In this document: in pieces, positions 57,663-63,808 of the stretch
How positions within the stretch are numbered: the stretch's first letter is position 1
Layout of the letters: each line of letters opens with the position of its first letter
DNA from: Rhodoblastus sp.
GTDB lineage: Bacteria > Pseudomonadota > Alphaproteobacteria > Rhizobiales > Beijerinckiaceae
Assembly: GCA_037044955.1 (NCBI GenBank)
Contig: JBAOHX010000001.1
Span: 107,140 to 171,139, forward strand
Reading direction: 5' to 3'
Length of the DNA stretch: 64,000 nt
Made by a program: the position numbers and the translations under genes
Notes under the pieces: model-generated
Database searches by the model: none
Seen by the model: only the letters and a program-made list of their open reading frames with translations
What the model was told of the DNA's origin: nothing

Positions 57663-60368
57663 CTACGTCTCCGCGATCTTCTCCGTCAGATCCAGCGTCA
57701 CGATGCTCACGCCCGGCTCCTCGCGCGACTCGCGCTGCCTGAAGCCGAGCGCCTTGCACATCTGCAGCATCGGCTGATTCTCGGTCAGCACCTGCCCGTC
57801 GATCCTGTGCAGGCCGAGGCGCCGGCCGTGTTCGATCATCATCTTCATCAGCGTCCAGCCGAGCCCTTGCCCCTTTGCGTTGGGCCCGAGCAGGATGGCG
57901 TATTCGCCTTCGGTCAGGTCGGCGTCCATCATCAGCCGCACGCCGCCGAGCATTTCGCCCGTGTCCACCTTGATGGCGGCCACCGCATAGGCGCGCGCGT
58001 AGTCGATCTGCGTGAGACGCGCGAGGAAGGCGTGGCTGAACGCCTTTACCGGCGCGAAGAAGCGCAGGCGCAGATCGTTCTGCGGCACGGTCTCGAAGAA
58101 AGCGTGATACATCTCTTCGTCTTCCGGCCGCACCGGGCGCACGAGCACTTCCGACCCGTCCTTGACGCGGATCGTCTGCTCGAGATCCTTCGGGTAGGGC
58201 GCGACCGCGAAACGGCGGTTCGACTGGCCGACGCGCTGCTTCGGATCGGGTTCCACGCGGATGCGCGCGTCGACCACCATCACGCCGTCCTCGTCGGCGA
58301 GCAGCGGATTGAGGTCGAGCTCGCGCACTTCCGGCACGTCGGCGGCGAGCTGCGCCAGCTTGACGAGGGTCAGCGCCACGGCGTCGATGTCGGCGCGCGG
58401 CACGTCGCGATAATATTCGAGGATGTTGGCGACGCGCGTGCGCTTGATCATGTCGTGCGCGAGCGCGAGGTCGAGCGGCGGCAGCGCCAGCGAGCGGTCC
58501 TCGATGATCTCCACCGCCTTGCCGCCGCGCCCGAACACGATCACCGGGCCGAAGGTCGGATCGTCGGCGATGCCCGCGATCAGTTCGCGCCCGTGCGGAC
58601 GCTTGATCATCGGATGCACGGTCACGCCCTCGATGCTCGCTTGCGGAATTTCGCGCCCGATGCGCGCCATCATCTCGCGCGCCGCCTCTACCGCGGCGTC
58701 GGGCGTGCGGATGTCGAGCACGACGCCGCCGATATCCGACTTGTGCGCGATGTCGCGCGAAACGATCTTGATGACGCAGGCGCGCGAGCGCGCGATGTAC
58801 AGGCGCGCGAGTTCGCCGGCTTCTTCCGGCGTGCGGGCGAAACGCGCGGGCGCCACGGGAATGTCGTAGGCGTCGAGCAGCATGGTCATCTCGACCGGCG
58901 CCAGCCAGCGATGGCCACGATGGATCGCCTGGGCGACGACGCTGCGCGCGCGCGCCACGTCGGGCTCGAAATCCTCCGGCAGGTTCGGCGGCGTGCTCAT
59001 CATGAACTCGCGCGCCTCGTTCCAGCGCACCATGTGCATGAATCCGCGCACGGCGCCGTAGGCATAGTGCGGAATGCGCGCGTCCTCGAAAATCTTGTCG
59101 GTCTCCTCCGTCGCGCCGAACCACACGGCGAACACGGGCTTCGGCGACAGCGTGCGCTTGCGCGCCTCCTTCACGGCGGCGACCACCGCGTCGGCCGCTT
59201 CCGGCGATCGCGACAGGGCGCTGGGCGCATGCATCACCATGATCGCGTCGGTCGTCTTGTCCTCCAGCAGCGCGCCGACCGCCGTCTTGAACCGCGCGGG
59301 ATCGGCGTCGCCGTCGATGTCGAGCGGGTTCTCCTTCGATATATCAGGCGGCAGCACGCCTTCGAGCTTCGTCCATGTCGCGGGCTCGATCGGCGCGAGC
59401 TTGCCGCGCTGGTCGGCGAGTCGGTCCGCCGCGAGCCGCCCGAGGCCGCCGCCGTTGGAGACGATGGCGAGGCGTCCGCCGGGGAAGGGCTTGATGCGCC
59501 CGAGCGCCTCGGCGGCGTCGAACAATTCGTCGACGTCGCCGACGCGCAGCAGGCCGGCGCGGCGGAAGGCGGCGTCGTAGACCGTGTCGGGGCCCGCCAT
59601 GTTGGCGACCGACGAGCCGCCGCGCGGCCCGCGCTTGTGGCGGCCGGACTTGACGACGATGACAGGTTTCACGCGCGCGGCGGCGCGCGCGGCCGACATG
59701 AATTTCTGCGCGTCTTCCAGCCGGTCGATGTAGAGCAGGATGGCGCGCGTCGCGACGTCGAGCGCGAAATAGTCGAGCAGGTCGCCGAAATCGACGTCGA
59801 CCATTTCGCCCGCCGACACCATGCCGGAGAAGCCGACGTGCCGCTTGTGCGCCCAGGCGAGCAGCGCCGCGCCGATCGCGCCGGATTGCGAGACGAGCGC
59901 GAGATCGCCGGCGGGCGCCTGCTGGCCGGAAAGCGAGGCGTTGAGGCCTGCCTTCGGCACGAGAACGCCCAGGCAATTCGGGCCGATGATGCGCATCCGG
60001 TCGCGTTGCGCGATCTTCTTCAGCCGCTCCGTCATCTCGCCGCCGCGCCATCCCTCGGGATCGCGCGTCATCACCAGCGCGCCCGGCACGCCGAGCCGCT
60101 CGGCTTCTTCGAGTTGCGCCACGACATGCTCGGCGGGCGCGGCGACGACGAGCAGATCCGGCGGCGTCGCGAGATCGGCGAGCGCGCGCACGCAGGGGCG
60201 CCCGTCGATTTCCTCGTAGCGCGGATTGATCAGCGAAATCTCGCCCTTGAAGCCGGCGCCCACGATATTGTCGAACAGCGCCCGGCCGGACGAGCCCGGC
60301 CTCGGGCTCGCGCCGACCAGCGCCAGCGACTTCGGCGAGAAAATGCGGTCGAGCGCCCGCGTGCCCAT
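57663..60368 (-). CDS. Bifunctional NDP-forming acyl-CoA synthetase-like / GNAT protein acetyltransferase (Pat-type)
   Basis: ORF 57663..60461 with ATG 60368. CoA-binding SLALVGASPRPGSSG, succinyl-CoA-ligase-like and ATP-grasp regions, and a C-terminal GNAT (AILLGPNAKGQGLGWTLMKMMIEHGRRLGL). Confidence 0.85.
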   Translation of the reverse strand: MGTRALDRIFSPKSLALVGASPRPGSSGRALFDNIVGAGFKGEISLINPRYEEIDGRPCVRALADLATPPDLLVVAAPAEHVVAQLEEAERLGVPGALVMTRDPEGWRGGEMTERLKKIAQRDRMRIIGPNCLGVLVPKAGLNASLSGQQAPAGDLALVSQSGAIGAALLAWAHKRHVGFSGMVSAGEMVDVDFGDLLDYFALDVATRAILLYIDRLEDAQKFMSAARAAARVKPVIVVKSGRHKRGPRGGSSVANMAGPDTVYDAAFRRAGLLRVGDVDELFDAAEALGRIKPFPGGRLAIVSNGGGLGRLAADRLADQRGKLAPIEPATWTKLEGVLPPDISKENPLDIDGDADPARFKTAVGALLEDKTTDAIMVMHAPSALSRSPEAADAVVAAVKEARKRTLSPKPVFAVWFGATEETDKIFEDARIPHYAYGAVRGFMHMVRWNEAREFMMSTPPNLPEDFEPDVARARSVVAQAIHRGHRWLAPVEMTMLLDAYDIPVAPARFARTPEEAGELARLYIARSRACVIKIVSRDIAHKSDIGGVVLDIRTPDAAVEAAREMMARIGREIPQASIEGVTVHPMIKRPHGRELIAGIADDPTFGPVIVFGRGGKAVEIIEDRSLALPPLDLALAHDMIKRTRVANILEYYRDVPRADIDAVALTLVKLAQLAADVPEVRELDLNPLLADEDGVMVVDARIRVEPDPKQRVGQSNRRFAVAPYPKDLEQTIRVKDGSEVLVRPVRPEDEEMYHAFFETVPQNDLRLRFFAPVKAFSHAFLARLTQIDYARAYAVAAIKVDTGEMLGGVRLMMDADLTEGEYAILLGPNAKGQGLGWTLMKMMIEHGRRLGLHRIDGQVLTENQPMLQMCKALGFRQRESREEPGVSIVTLDLTEKIAET

Positions 60369-60570
60369 TCTGCTTATCCTCGAACTGACGCGGCCGGCCC
60401 GGCCGGTTTGCGTACCGGAATTATCATGCTGCATTGCAGCACGGGCAAGGCGGGAATTCATTGAGATCGCGCAAAGCGCATGCGCATCGAGCCCGCAAGC
60501 CGATTGACAGTCAACCGGCGTCTCGCTTCACTCTCCGCAACCCCGGGGACAGGGACAGAGGGAGCTGATC

Positions 60571-60942
60571 ATGAAGCGAATGATTTTGGCGGGCGTGGGC
60601 GTGCTCGCGCTGATGGGGCCTGCGATGGCGGCGGACATCGTCGGCACCTGGCTGCGCAGCAACGGCGAATCGCGCGTGCGCATGGCGCCTTGCGGCGGCG
60701 GCGTCTGCGGCACCATCACCTGGCTCAAGACGCCCGGCAAGAGCGACGCCAAGGTCGGCCAGCAGGTTTTCTACAACATGAAACCGGACGGTTCCGGCGG
60801 CTGGGAAGGCTCGGCCTTCAATCCCGAGGACGGCAAGACCTATGCCGGCAAGGCCTCGGTCTCCGGCTCCAGCATGACCACCAAGGGCTGCGTGCTCGGC
60901 GGCATGATCTGCAAGTCCGTGAGCTGGTCGCGCGTCAACTGA
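60571..60942 (+). CDS. DUF2147 domain-containing periplasmic protein
   Basis: ORF 60571..60942. Signal peptide, then IVGTWLRSNGESRVRMAPCGGGVCGTITWLK...GKTYAGKASVSGSSMTTKGC. Confidence 0.8.
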   Translation: MKRMILAGVGVLALMGPAMAADIVGTWLRSNGESRVRMAPCGGGVCGTITWLKTPGKSDAKVGQQVFYNMKPDGSGGWEGSAFNPEDGKTYAGKASVSGSSMTTKGCVLGGMICKSVSWSRVN

Positions 60943-61564
60943 ACCGCAAGATCGGCGGCGCGCTCGGATGCCATTCGGGCGCGTAGCCGGCCGATAGCGC
61001 GGCAAGGTTCGTGGGCGGCGTGAGGCAGGCGACCTCGCGCTTGCGCGGTCGTGGCGCGGGCGCGCCGTAGCCGGCAAACGACCACGAAAAAATCCGGTCG
61101 CCCCTGATCGCGAAAGCCTGCGCGCCTGCGGCGTAGATCGCCCCGTCGGGCAAATCGTCGATCTGCGACGGATGCGTGCGCTTGGCGCGGCCGTCGCGGC
61201 GCTCGGCGTCCAGACGCCGGTCGAGGTCGCCCGCCCGCAACGTCTCCGTCGGGTCGATCGCGGCGCGATAGGCGAGCGCCCGGTCGCGCCGGCATTCGAA
61301 GCACGGCCGGTGGCCGGCGGCGAGCGCCGTGGGTTCGTCGAGGAAGAAAAGGTCGGTGTAGCGCCTGCCGAACACCACGTTGCGCCGGTTCTTGAACGCG
61401 CACAGGCACGTGATCCATTGCTTCGATTTCCAGCGCGAGGTCCCGAGCGTCTGGTCGCCGCGGTGAAACCGCCCGCCGCGATTGCCGTAGAACAGGCCGC
61501 GTTCGGGCGTGGCGTGGATATCGCCGAAGGGGTCGACGCGGTTCTGGAGCGGCGAGGGACGCAT
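60935..61564 (-). CDS. Conserved hypothetical protein (209 aa) with CxC and CxxC motifs
   Basis: ORF 60935..61564. Its start directly abuts the stop of the upstream Cys-rich mini-protein gene. QWITCLCAF...YTDLFFLDEPTALAAGHRPCFECRR. Confidence 0.6.
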   Translation of the reverse strand: MRPSPLQNRVDPFGDIHATPERGLFYGNRGGRFHRGDQTLGTSRWKSKQWITCLCAFKNRRNVVFGRRYTDLFFLDEPTALAAGHRPCFECRRDRALAYRAAIDPTETLRAGDLDRRLDAERRDGRAKRTHPSQIDDLPDGAIYAAGAQAFAIRGDRIFSWSFAGYGAPAPRPRKREVACLTPPTNLAALSAGYAPEWHPSAPPILRFS

Positions 61565-61858
61565 TCAGCCGCCTACGAAGCCCGCGGTCGGGCTCGAGCA
61601 CCGGCCTTCGCGCGCCTTCATCGTCGGCGGATCGCAGGGCGACAGGTCTTCCGCGCACATGGGACGGCACACCTGCCCGGTGACGGGGTCGACCTGGCGA
61701 TTGTCGCGCAGCGGCGTCTCGGGATCGTCGGCGCGCCGCTGCGCGCGCGCCGCGCTCGCGAAGACGACGCAGACAAAGCCGGTTGCAGCGACGAAGAGTC
61801 CGCGGCGCGAAAGAACCGGTCTGCTCAACGCACGCTGCCCGCTGTCGGGCTCGAGCAT
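61565..61858 (-). CDS. Small secreted Cys-rich protein, paralog A
   Basis: Tail of ORF 61565..62203. Tat/Sec-like leader SRRGLFVAATGFVCVVFASAARA. C-terminal motif CRPMCAEDLSPCDPPTMKAREGRCSSPTAGFVGG. The start is ATG 61858 or TTG 61828 (TTGA overlap with the paralog B stop). Confidence 0.55.
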   Translation of the reverse strand: MLEPDSGQRALSRPVLSRRGLFVAATGFVCVVFASAARAQRRADDPETPLRDNRQVDPVTGQVCRPMCAEDLSPCDPPTMKAREGRCSSPTAGFVGG

Positions 61859-62085
61859 CGGCCGTCGGCGGCCTTCTGCTGCGGCGAATCGCACGGGGTC
61901 GCATCTTCCGCGCACATCGGCCTGCATCTGCCGGCATATGGTTCGCCGTAGGGCTCGGAATAGGGACCGCGCCGGCGCACGCGTTCCTCGTAATAGACCT
62001 GCGCCAGCGCTTCGCCGGCGAACGCGGCGGCGCCGAGCGCTGAGGCGCTCAAGATAAGAAACGAGCGCCGCGACTGGGCGGTCAT
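61825..62085 (-). CDS. Small secreted Cys-rich protein, paralog B
   Basis: ORF 61825..62085. Tat-like leader MTAQSRRSFLILSASALGAAAFAGEALA. C-terminal CRPMCAEDATPCDSPQQKAADGRCSSPTAGSVR. Confidence 0.6.
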   Translation of the reverse strand: MTAQSRRSFLILSASALGAAAFAGEALAQVYYEERVRRRGPYSEPYGEPYAGRCRPMCAEDATPCDSPQQKAADGRCSSPTAGSVR

Positions 62086-62106
62086 GGCTCCTCTCCTCGT
62101 TGTTGC

Positions 62107-62331
62107 TTACGGCATCTGCACGCCGCCGACGAACGGGCTCGAGCACCGTCCGTCGGCGCGCTTGAATTCCGGCGGATCGCAGGGCGTCATGTCGAACGTG
62201 CACATCGGCCGGCAGACGCCGGCGCTCGCGCGCGCCGTTTCATAGACGCGCACATTCTTCTTCTTCGGTTTGGCGGCCGCAGGTCCCGCCATCAGCGCGG
62301 CTGCGGCCAGGATGACGATCACGAGACGCAT
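62107..62331 (-). CDS. Small secreted Cys-rich protein, paralog C
   Basis: ATG 62331 in ORF 62107..62415. Sec leader MRLVIVILAAAALMAGPAAA. C-terminal CRPMCTFDMTPCDPPEFKRADGRCSSPFVGGVQMP. Confidence 0.6.
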   Translation of the reverse strand: MRLVIVILAAAALMAGPAAAKPKKKNVRVYETARASAGVCRPMCTFDMTPCDPPEFKRADGRCSSPFVGGVQMP

Positions 62332-62416
62332 GCTGGCCTCCTCGGTTCCCGCCATAGATGACGCCACGACGGCCCGTCGGCAAGTGCGCAAGCTGACGCG
62401 CCGGCAGTCGCGCAAA

Positions 62417-63808
62417 TTACCGCGCGTCGGCCTGCAGGCCGATCGAGTCGACCTGGTAGACGTCGTCGGCGAAATGCACGGCGCCGTCGGCCGAGGCCCA
62501 GCCGGTCATGTACACCCAGATCACCGGCGTCGGGCGCGCAAGTTTGAGGTCCTGCCGCTCCTTGCCGATCTGCGCCATCAGCCCGGCGCGGTCCCAATTG
62601 CCCGAACCCTGCAGCAGCCAGGCGGCGAGGTCCCATACGCCCTGCACGCGCACGCAGCCGTGCGACAGAAAGCGGTAATCGCGATTGAAGAAGCCCTTCG
62701 AGGGCGTGTCGTGCATGTAGACGGCGTATTTGTTGTTCATCTGGATGCGGATGGAGCCGAGCGCGTTATGCGTGCCGGAATCCTGTCGCAGCGTGTAATT
62801 GACCGCCTTCTCGCTGCCCCAGTTGATCGAACGCGGGTCGATCACCGTGCCGCGCCCGTCGAGGATCTTGATCTTCGAGCGCGCGAGATAGCCGGGGTCG
62901 CGCCGCATCTTCGGAATGATCTCGTTCTTGATGATCGAGGTCGGCAGCGTCCATGTCGGGTTGAGGTTGATGGCGCTGATGCGCGTCGACACTTCGGGCG
63001 AGCGATGGTCGACATCGCCGACGACCGCCGTGTAGCGCTTGACGACCTGCCCGTTCTCGACCGCCTCGACGGCGGCGGATGGAATGTTGACCACGACATA
63101 GCGCTCGCCGAACGCGAATTGCACGCCGGCCAGCCGCTGCGAGCTCGAGGCGAGCTGCTTGAAGCGGACATTGGCGGTCGTGTTGAGCGCGCGCAGCGTC
63201 GCGCCGGAAGCGACGCCGGTCTGCTTGAGGCCGTTGCGCGCCTGGAAATGCTTGACGGCTGCAGCCAGCGTCGCGTCCCAGGCGTCGCCGGGCCCCACGG
63301 CCTCGTGCGGATCGCCCTCGATCTGCAGCCGCCGCCGCAGCGCCGCGACCGCGGCGCCCTTGGCGCCCGGTCCGACATTGCCGGGCACCTTCGGCCAGCC
63401 GCCGGCGTCCACGATCTTGGCGTAGCGCTCGGAGGCGGCGGCGCTGGCGAAGAAGGTTTCGGGCTGGAACGATGGCGTCGGATCGTCCGACAGCGCCCAC
63501 TCGCGGATCGGCGGCTTGGGCTTCGGCTTGGCGGCGGCCTTGGGCTGCGGCGCGGGCTGCGCCGGCGGAAAGCCCGCGGCCTCGCCGGCCGGCTGGGCGG
63601 ACGGGGCGGGGGCGGGCGCAATGCTGGTCGAAGGGGCCGCCGGCGGAGCGGGCAGCGGCGTGAAGACGTTGGGCAGCGGGGCCGACTGCGTCGCGCGCGG
63701 CGCCATCTGGCCGGGCGCGGGCTGCGCAGCAGCGAACTCGCCCCACGCCACGGCGGCGGCCGCGGCGCAGATCAAGCGGAAAGACCTCGTATGGGCCTGA
63801 AAATTCAT
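62417..63808 (-). CDS. L,D-transpeptidase (YkuD) with peptidoglycan-binding domain
   Basis: ORF 62417..63808. Signal peptide and Pro/Ala-rich linker. PG_binding_1 (LRRRLQIEGD...AVKHFQARNGLKQTGVASGATL). YkuD catalytic region YMHDTPSKGFFNRDYRFLSHGCVRV. Confidence 0.85.
   Translation of the reverse strand: MNFQAHTRSFRLICAAAAAVAWGEFAAAQPAPGQMAPRATQSAPLPNVFTPLPAPPAAPSTSIAPAPAPSAQPAGEAAGFPPAQPAPQPKAAAKPKPKPPIREWALSDDPTPSFQPETFFASAAASERYAKIVDAGGWPKVPGNVGPGAKGAAVAALRRRLQIEGDPHEAVGPGDAWDATLAAAVKHFQARNGLKQTGVASGATLRALNTTANVRFKQLASSSQRLAGVQFAFGERYVVVNIPSAAVEAVENGQVVKRYTAVVGDVDHRSPEVSTRISAINLNPTWTLPTSIIKNEIIPKMRRDPGYLARSKIKILDGRGTVIDPRSINWGSEKAVNYTLRQDSGTHNALGSIRIQMNNKYAVYMHDTPSKGFFNRDYRFLSHGCVRVQGVWDLAAWLLQGSGNWDRAGLMAQIGKERQDLKLARPTPVIWVYMTGWASADGAVHFADDVYQVDSIGLQADAR

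Follow-up and report, generated by a model that had tools for sequence, protein, structure and literature searches.

Three consecutive small genes, designated A, B, and C, occupy positions 61565 to 62331 on the minus strand of a 64-kb stretch of Rhodoblastus sp. DNA (contig JBAOHX010000001.1; hereafter the window, with 66.6% G+C overall and whose positions are used as coordinates throughout). The open reading frame (ORF) listing and translations show that each codes for a small protein in which an N-terminal leader, closed by an AxA site, is followed by a divergent linker and then by a shared 24-residue C-terminal module with four cysteines. The reading we favor, with a confidence somewhat better than even, is that A, B, and C are tandem paralogues belonging to an undescribed, lineage-restricted family of envelope mini-proteins, each with two disulfides and located in the periplasm. 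The coding status of the genes, the existence and architecture of the family, its fixed number of cysteines, and the enrichment of a stress promoter upstream of its members are seen directly in the comparisons described below, together with the copy-number variation from which the array can be traced; export, cleavage, disulfide bonding, and ligand binding are predicted.

Gene A (62107 to 62331, minus strand) codes for a 74-aa precursor starting at an ATG, with a Shine-Dalgarno sequence (GAGGAGG) at 62337 to 62343 and the ATG six bases further on. It has a predicted leader of the general secretion (Sec) type (MRLVIVILAAAALMAGPAAA, 62272 to 62331), a basic linker (KPKKKNVRVYETARASAGV), the module (62143 to 62214), and the tail SSPFVGGVQMP. 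The ATG of gene B (61825 to 62085, minus strand) lies 21 bases downstream of the gene A stop and is preceded by GAGGAGAGGAG; the 86-aa precursor has a predicted twin-arginine leader (MTAQSRRSFLILSASALGAAAFAGEALA, 62002 to 62085), a linker of Tyr, Arg, Glu, and Pro, the module at 61855 to 61926, and the tail SSPTAGSVR. Gene C (61565 to 61828, minus strand) codes for an 87-aa precursor if read from a TTG that overlaps the TGA stop of gene B as TTGA, and it consists of the leader (L/M)SRPVLSRRGLFVAATGFVCVVFASAARA (61742 to 61828), a linker, the module (61598 to 61669), and the tail SSPTAGFVGG. Reading from another in-frame ATG, at 61858, would yield 97 aa, but the TTG is most likely the start, because the C-type orthologues in four related loci (L032, L035, L065, and L072) begin at the corresponding position, with an overlap between the C start and the B stop again present in L035. 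The possible start/stop overlap noted in the original prediction, made from the sequence alone, is retained, and 87 aa is a more likely length than the 97 aa given there. The TGA of gene C directly abuts the ATG of a gene for a 209-aa protein (GGCTGAATGCGT), so that, as also proposed there, the array runs straight into this gene.

The modules of A (CRPMCTFDMTPCDPPEFKRADGRC), B (CRPMCAEDATPCDSPQQKAADGRC), and C (CRPMCAEDLSPCDPPTMKAREGRC) share the consensus C-R-P-M-C-x2-D-x-[ST]-P-C-D-x-P-x2-K-x2-[DE]-G-R-C, followed by S-S-P. This is exactly the nearly invariant four-cysteine motif that had been claimed behind divergent linkers, and the ORFs and translations likewise agree with the description of three tightly packed, tandem paralogous genes at these coordinates. 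Similarity extends to the DNA, where recurrence had also been reported: A, B, and C have the 12-base string TGCTCGAGCCCG in identical form, and the mean column identity of the module DNA is 81%. The three copies are not a product of chance, because a hidden Markov model (HMM) of the module run on the six-frame translation of the window recovers A, B, and C at E = 1e-22 to 1e-25, versus E = 0.35 for the next best match.

Comparison with orthologues (A in 11 related loci, 12 for B, and 5 for C) indicates that all three are coding genes under purifying selection, and on this evolutionary evidence they are presumably translated. The median ratios of nonsynonymous to synonymous substitution rates (dN/dS) are 0.25 for A, 0.33 for B, and 0.34 for C (5 to 12 orthologous loci), third-position changes dominate, indels in the linkers come in multiples of three, and starts and stops are kept; the G+C content at third codon positions is 0.78 to 0.84, with gene A at 0.84. 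The conservation of the module could alternatively reflect a noncoding or opposite-strand element rather than three proteins, as the original prediction had itself allowed, since two long plus-strand ORFs (61172 to 61951 and 61509 to 62057) span the array and a DNA motif (CGGGCTCGAGCA) recurs. However, the plus-strand frame that consistently reads the module (as GLEHRPS) has one stop within A and four within B, and among 122 family genes just 17 have it open; the plus-strand ORFs over the region have no Pfam match, and an Rfam scan of the array region found nothing. These antisense stops and the empty Rfam scan, together with sense-frame dN/dS values below 0.35, frame-keeping indels, and conserved starts and stops, refute antisense coding or an RNA element, and we assign that explanation a vanishingly small probability.

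The module family and its distribution

The module defines a real protein family that appears to be undescribed. An exhaustive profile search against 1.84 billion protein representatives retrieves 136 clusters at E ≤ 1e-3, and 133 of the 135 clusters retrieved as sequences carry C-x3-C-x6-C-x11-13-C at the C-terminus of proteins that are mostly 70 to 120 aa long. Word-indexed searches are nearly blind to this family: a homologue search with B returned 18 close relatives, from Rhodoblastus metagenome genomes, and one with the module profile returned nine. The exhaustive profile search and a scan with the degenerate DNA pattern PCDP-x2-[FY]-K-x2-DGRC are what revealed the family, the latter matching 98 stretches (contigs, with one genome per species; loci are given L numbers here). 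The matching genera are Methylobacterium, Methylocella, Methylocapsa, Methylocystis, Rhodoblastus, Lichenihabitans, Lichenibacterium, Lichenifustis, Chelatococcus, Camelimonas, and Salinarimonas, with others in the Hyphomicrobiales, and by this distribution the family is limited to a single alphaproteobacterial branch of the Beijerinckiaceae/Methylobacteriaceae type. Typical family genes are also present on contigs binned as metagenome-assembled genomes of Thermoplasmata (L036), Solirubrobacteraceae (L069), and Granulicella (L077); the L036 and L069 modules are identical, and these off-lineage bins are therefore probably contaminated by a Hyphomicrobiales genome.

Across a pooled set of 236 unique family sequences, the module is exactly 24 residues long in every one. 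Cys1, Cys5, Asp8, Pro11, Cys12, Asp13, Lys18, Arg23, and Cys24 vary hardly or not at all, Asp21 and Gly22 are present in 98% and 95%, respectively, and L, M, and W are about equally frequent at position 4. An N-terminal hydrophobic core is found in 231 of the sequences, preceded by an RR pair in 19 (8%), and a lipobox-like string occurs in only four. The linkers (median of 25 residues) are rich in Pro, Arg, Ala, Tyr, and Gly and contain no cysteine in any member, and the predicted mature part has exactly four cysteines in 235 of the 236. Some genomes have more than one family locus, as in Lichenihabitans (L010 and L018) and Chelatococcus reniformis (L019 and L020), and independent tandem pairs are present at L008, L010, L034, L054, and L092.

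The original prediction had not recognized the module, and profile and HMM searches place it in no curated family. Neither A, B, and C nor 137 relatives have a match above noise in Pfam-A 2025 or NCBIfam 20.0, and A, B, and C have none above a curated cut-off; the module has no PDB or Rfam match (the module profile finds only a chance match among PDB sequences, at E = 2.3), and tblastn against plasmids gives no match. All member names seen in databases are "hypothetical protein," and the literature, searched with keywords and for motif strings in print, yielded nothing relevant and no printed module sequence. The kind of protein is already known, as small, cysteine-stabilized exported proteins of bacteria, of which this family is a new variant. 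It adds a sharply defined mini-domain, with 11 conserved positions in 24 residues, to the many uncharacterized small exported bacterial proteins; as one more such group with a narrow range, it would not greatly surprise a specialist and opens no long-standing question.

Origin of the array

Directly upstream of gene A, across an 85-base gap, is an L,D-transpeptidase gene (62417 to 63808, minus strand) whose product has a PG_binding_1 domain (PF01471; 39.3 bits, cut-off 23) and a YkuD domain (PF03734; 83.9 bits, cut-off 23.4), the latter establishing its identity as a YkuD L,D-transpeptidase. The gene order typical of Rhodoblastus-type loci is lutABC, a 56-aa ORF, the L,D-transpeptidase gene, A, B, (C), the 209-aa gene, a convergent DUF2147 gene, and a large CoA-ligase/acetyltransferase gene. 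Among the 98 scanned, species-representative loci with a module gene, 18 have a transpeptidase orthologue, with identity down to 67%, as the immediate upstream gene on the same strand, and 13 have the 209-aa gene downstream. The number of copies at this site is not constant: there is a single small gene in L015, L037, L058, L062, L074, and L099, two in most Rhodoblastus-type loci as well as in L008 and L092, and three in the window and in L032, L035, L065, and L072. A 104-aa ORF between the transpeptidase and 209-aa genes of L105 is not a family member and has no cysteine. In three Xanthobacteraceae loci (L108 to L110), the 209-aa gene follows 23 bases after the same transpeptidase gene, below lutABC, with no small gene between them.

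Because the transpeptidase and 209-aa genes are directly adjacent in these Xanthobacteraceae, they are, judging from gene order, a pair that is older than the insertion of the small gene between them. The closest paralogues, compared over the module plus four residues, are B and C (72% identity, versus 62% for A-B and 61% for A-C), and the single-copy forms are closest to A (61%, versus 50 to 52%). These relationships suggest that an A-like gene was inserted between the preexisting L,D-transpeptidase and 209-aa genes, that it was duplicated to give B with a change of export route, and that B was then duplicated to give C in a subclade. The local amplification envisaged in the original prediction is thus supported by the occurrence of one, two, and three copies at the same site in relatives and by the closeness of C to B. 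The array offers a clean evolutionary example of insertion into a conserved pair, followed by tandem amplification and a Sec-to-twin-arginine switch of the signal.

The functional tie to the 209-aa protein, for which a neighborhood survey had been suggested, found no support when the survey was run. The 209-aa family has more than 7740 clusters versus 136 for the module, and this far larger size, the pairing without small genes in L108 to L110, and the co-occurrence in only 13 of 98 loci rule it out as a dedicated partner. The 209-aa gene lies 8 to 23 bases after whichever gene precedes it (window compared with L108 to L110) and follows ftsH in another lineage, and its link to the small genes is positional only. 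Outside the Rhodoblastus-type clade, neighbors of family members are heterogeneous, with 109 Pfam families among 114 flanking genes, the commonest being infC, in seven Lichenihabitans-type genomes. In L050, L056, L087, L023, and L053, second and third kinds of cell-wall enzyme are found beside members, in lineages without the transpeptidase linkage.

Predicted export, regulation, and role

All three genes code for predicted export leaders, two of them of the RR type, as had been noted. The gene A leader has a positive n-region (MR), an h-region (LVIVILAAAALM), and AGPAAA with its AxA site, and the B and C leaders contain SRRSFL and SRRGLF, respectively, which are motifs of the twin-arginine translocation (Tat) type; the predicted cleavage sites are AAA/K in A, ALA/Q in B, and ARA/Q in C. 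B scores 15.0 bits against the TIGR01409 Tat signal, below the cut-off of 16.7, and matches the PF10399 Tat leader at E = 0.022. Of 12 B orthologues, 11 retain the RR pair, as do all five C orthologues, and SRRSFL is kept in the B orthologues. Outside the B and C types there are essentially no RR leaders, and the export signal therefore changed after duplication. Linkers of B orthologues contain runs of four to seven Arg followed by acidic runs, and the switch to Tat may accommodate these highly charged linkers, because Sec is known not to tolerate positive charge close to the leader.

Between the transpeptidase gene and gene A is a conserved block, CTTGCC...CATCTATGG (62352 to 62384, minus strand), that is kept in 12 Rhodoblastus-type loci while its flanks vary. 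A consensus promoter scan did not call this block; we infer from its conservation that it is a candidate sigma-70-like promoter, which would probably drive transcription of A-B-C and probably also of the 209-aa gene. A different signal is present elsewhere in the family. GGAAC-N16-17-CGTT is the published promoter motif of the EcfG general stress response (PMC3892343), and exact copies lie 13 to 72 bases upstream of 15 of 114 members (13%). Among the other genes of these loci, 8 of 602 are preceded by the motif (odds ratio 11, p = 7e-8), which is found in 1 of 114 reverse complements and 0.3% of random segments. The members concerned (at L016, L028, L031, L044, L052, L053, L054, L059, L060, L061, L081, L090, L096, and L102) represent several subtypes in Methylobacterium, Lichenihabitans, Chelatococcus, and others. 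EcfG-type promoters on this sizeable minority point to an envelope or stress role, and the enrichment is a testable handle on function; we found no regulon study that lists a family member.

In AlphaFold2 models built with the family alignment, the module has a predicted local distance difference test score (pLDDT) of 87 to 90 and one short, seven-residue helix (PEFKRAD) between the third and fourth cysteines; there are no strands, and the linker and tail are of low confidence. Foldseek comparison of two of these models with the PDB gave no matches. An even and fixed number of cysteines in exported proteins is the expectation for disulfide bonding, and disulfides are favored here because the four-cysteine count is even and fixed in all but one of the pooled sequences. 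The spacing that these cysteines share with the core of the disulfide-bonded PAN/apple domain is in line with this. As we picture it, the precursors would be exported and cut after AxA, A by its Sec-type leader and B and C by their Tat-type leaders, freeing a mature peptide of about 54 to 58 residues that consists of a disordered Pro/Arg/Tyr/Gly-rich linker, free to vary, and the rigid 24-residue module. The four invariant cysteines would most likely form two disulfides in the oxidizing periplasm, and an invariant polar surface of Asp8, Asp13, Lys18, Asp21, and Arg23 probably binds an envelope ligand. The function of the family probably concerns the cell envelope.

Several features weigh against this reading. 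Tat leaders, as predicted for B and C, typically belong to proteins that acquire their fold or their cofactors in the cytoplasm. Immediately after the predicted cleavage site, gene A codes for KPKKK (62257 to 62271, codons 21 to 25), giving a net charge of +4 over 12 residues, and all A-type copies keep a Lys/Arg/His cluster of +4 or +5 at this position; such a basic cluster normally hinders Sec export and is unusual in Sec substrates, and the topology of the gene A product is therefore not certain. The EcfG motif is absent from the window locus and from 87% of members, and this, together with the lack of any sequence relation to known stress-regulon families, sets the family apart from the small periplasmic proteins of the EcfG regulon, which it resembles in being small, exported, and lineage variable and through the 13% of members with the exact motif. 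The cysteines might instead form a thiolate site for Cu(I), Zn(II), or a similar metal, making these periplasmic metal-binding or -buffering mini-proteins, with B and C perhaps loaded in the cytoplasm and exported by Tat. Four invariant cysteines and three invariant aspartates within 24 residues are compatible with such a site, as are the B and C leaders; C-x3-C is a known copper-binding motif of Sco proteins, and Tat-exported, cysteine-rich copper storage proteins exist in related methanotrophs. However, 92% of members have ordinary Sec-type leaders, DsbA normally oxidizes unpaired periplasmic thiols, and there are no conserved His or Met co-ligands, position 4 being L, M, or W. There is also no match to any metal-binding family, and no gene for copper, zinc, or other metal homeostasis is present among the 25 Pfam families listed of the 109 found in the 114 neighbors. 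We consider a metal site unlikely, and the evidence leans toward disulfides.

The gene neighborhood suggests other roles. A, B, and C could be partners (regulators, inhibitors, or substrates) of peptidoglycan-remodeling enzymes, here the upstream L,D-transpeptidase, as its same-strand position in 18 of the 98 loci would suggest, along with a Peptidase_M15_4 gene directly upstream in L050, L056, and L087 and a MepA (Peptidase_M74) gene 1.4 to 2.2 kb upstream in L023 and L053. These amount, however, to about three independent placements among dozens of contexts, which is not significant by a rough estimate, and a single insertion into a stable lutABC-ldt-209aa block, with vertical descent thereafter, explains the association with the transpeptidase. 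The diversity of the other neighbors (109 Pfam families among 114) also counts against such a partnership, gene A appears to have the conserved upstream block as its own, and the mature N- and C-termini are not conserved as they are in known transpeptidase substrates; we hold this role to be quite improbable. Small cysteine-rich peptides in a tandem array, tightly coupled to a 209-aa gene with conserved Cys and His, could also be the precursor forms of a secreted antimicrobial peptide or of a modified peptide of ribosomal origin, in which case the 209-aa protein would be the enzyme that modifies it. The leaders, though, are Sec or Tat signal peptides with AxA sites and not peptide-maturation leaders, and neighbor clustering and a Pfam scan of the same 114 neighbors show no recurring transporter, immunity, or maturation gene. 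Moreover, the 209-aa family occurs mostly without small genes, and most members of the module family have no 209-aa neighbor. A peptide-antibiotic or bacteriocin cluster is effectively excluded, with a probability close to negligible.

The disulfide-bonded envelope mini-proteins that we favor have partial counterparts among known systems. The module has the same cysteine spacing, C-x3-C-x6-C-x11-C, as the core of the PAN/apple domain (PF00024), and this identity with the PAN/apple disulfide core accounts for subthreshold PAN_1 matches in 11 of 137 relatives, at profile positions of about 24 to 50 of 76. The best score seen in detail (relative P0240) is 14 bits, below the gathering threshold of 21.4, and A, B, and C have no match to PF00024 at E ≤ 1. 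PAN domains are mainly eukaryotic, and their core cysteines form structural disulfides. The matches extend over only one-third or so of the profile's 76 positions, and the helix-on-beta-sheet fold of PAN domains is not found in the family model, which has no sheet; this is a resemblance and not membership. B and C, but not the family as a whole, also resemble high-potential iron-sulfur proteins (HiPIPs) and the copper storage protein Csp1 in being small and periplasmic with a twin-arginine leader and a fixed set of cysteines in related bacteria. HiPIPs have the spacing C-x2-C-x~14-C-x~15-C, which differs from that of the family, and there is no HiPIP Pfam match at E ≤ 1 for A, B, or C, nor one among the 25 families listed for the 137 relatives. 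Further differences from Csp1 and HiPIPs are the lack of any Pfam or NCBIfam match, the lack of a helical bundle, and the Sec-type leaders of most members, which are incompatible with cofactor loading in the cytoplasm. A bolder and doubtful proposal, to which we give little weight, is that the module is a new minimal fold whose Asp/Lys/Asp/Arg face and four cysteines bind a specific envelope target or a metal in the alphaproteobacterial stress response, the array then delivering one mature domain by two export routes in a switch driven by linker charge.

The 209-aa protein and downstream genes

The 209-aa protein (60935 to 61564, minus strand; its start codon abuts the gene C stop) is conserved and predicted to be cytoplasmic, and it has no Pfam match. 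Its only invariant cysteines are C53, C88, and C91, one fewer than the four zinc-ligand cysteines of the Ada N-terminal domain, and they are accompanied by the invariant H34 and H85. Searched against the PDB, its profile places four Ada entries at the top, with a weak best match (E = 0.02) over the block FFLDEPTALAAGHRPCFECRR, and the invariant block LFFLDEPTALAAGHRPCFECRR aligns with the N-terminal zinc-binding domain of Ada; the family may thus be an unrecognized one with an Ada-N-like zinc domain. Across families, the YkuD L,D-transpeptidase gene keeps its place after lutABC and before the 209-aa gene, a conserved order that pairs a periplasmic cell-wall enzyme with a cytoplasmic protein of zinc type.

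Two further genes lie downstream of the array. A DUF2147 gene with a signal peptide (60571 to 60942, plus strand) converges on the 209-aa gene, with the 3' ends overlapping by eight bases, and is kept in Rhodoblastus-type loci. Beyond it, a 932-aa ORF (57663 to 60461, minus strand) keeps its position in related loci, and its orthologues carry CoA_binding_2, Succ_CoA_lig, ATP-grasp_5, and Acetyltransf_1/Acetyltransf_3 domains.

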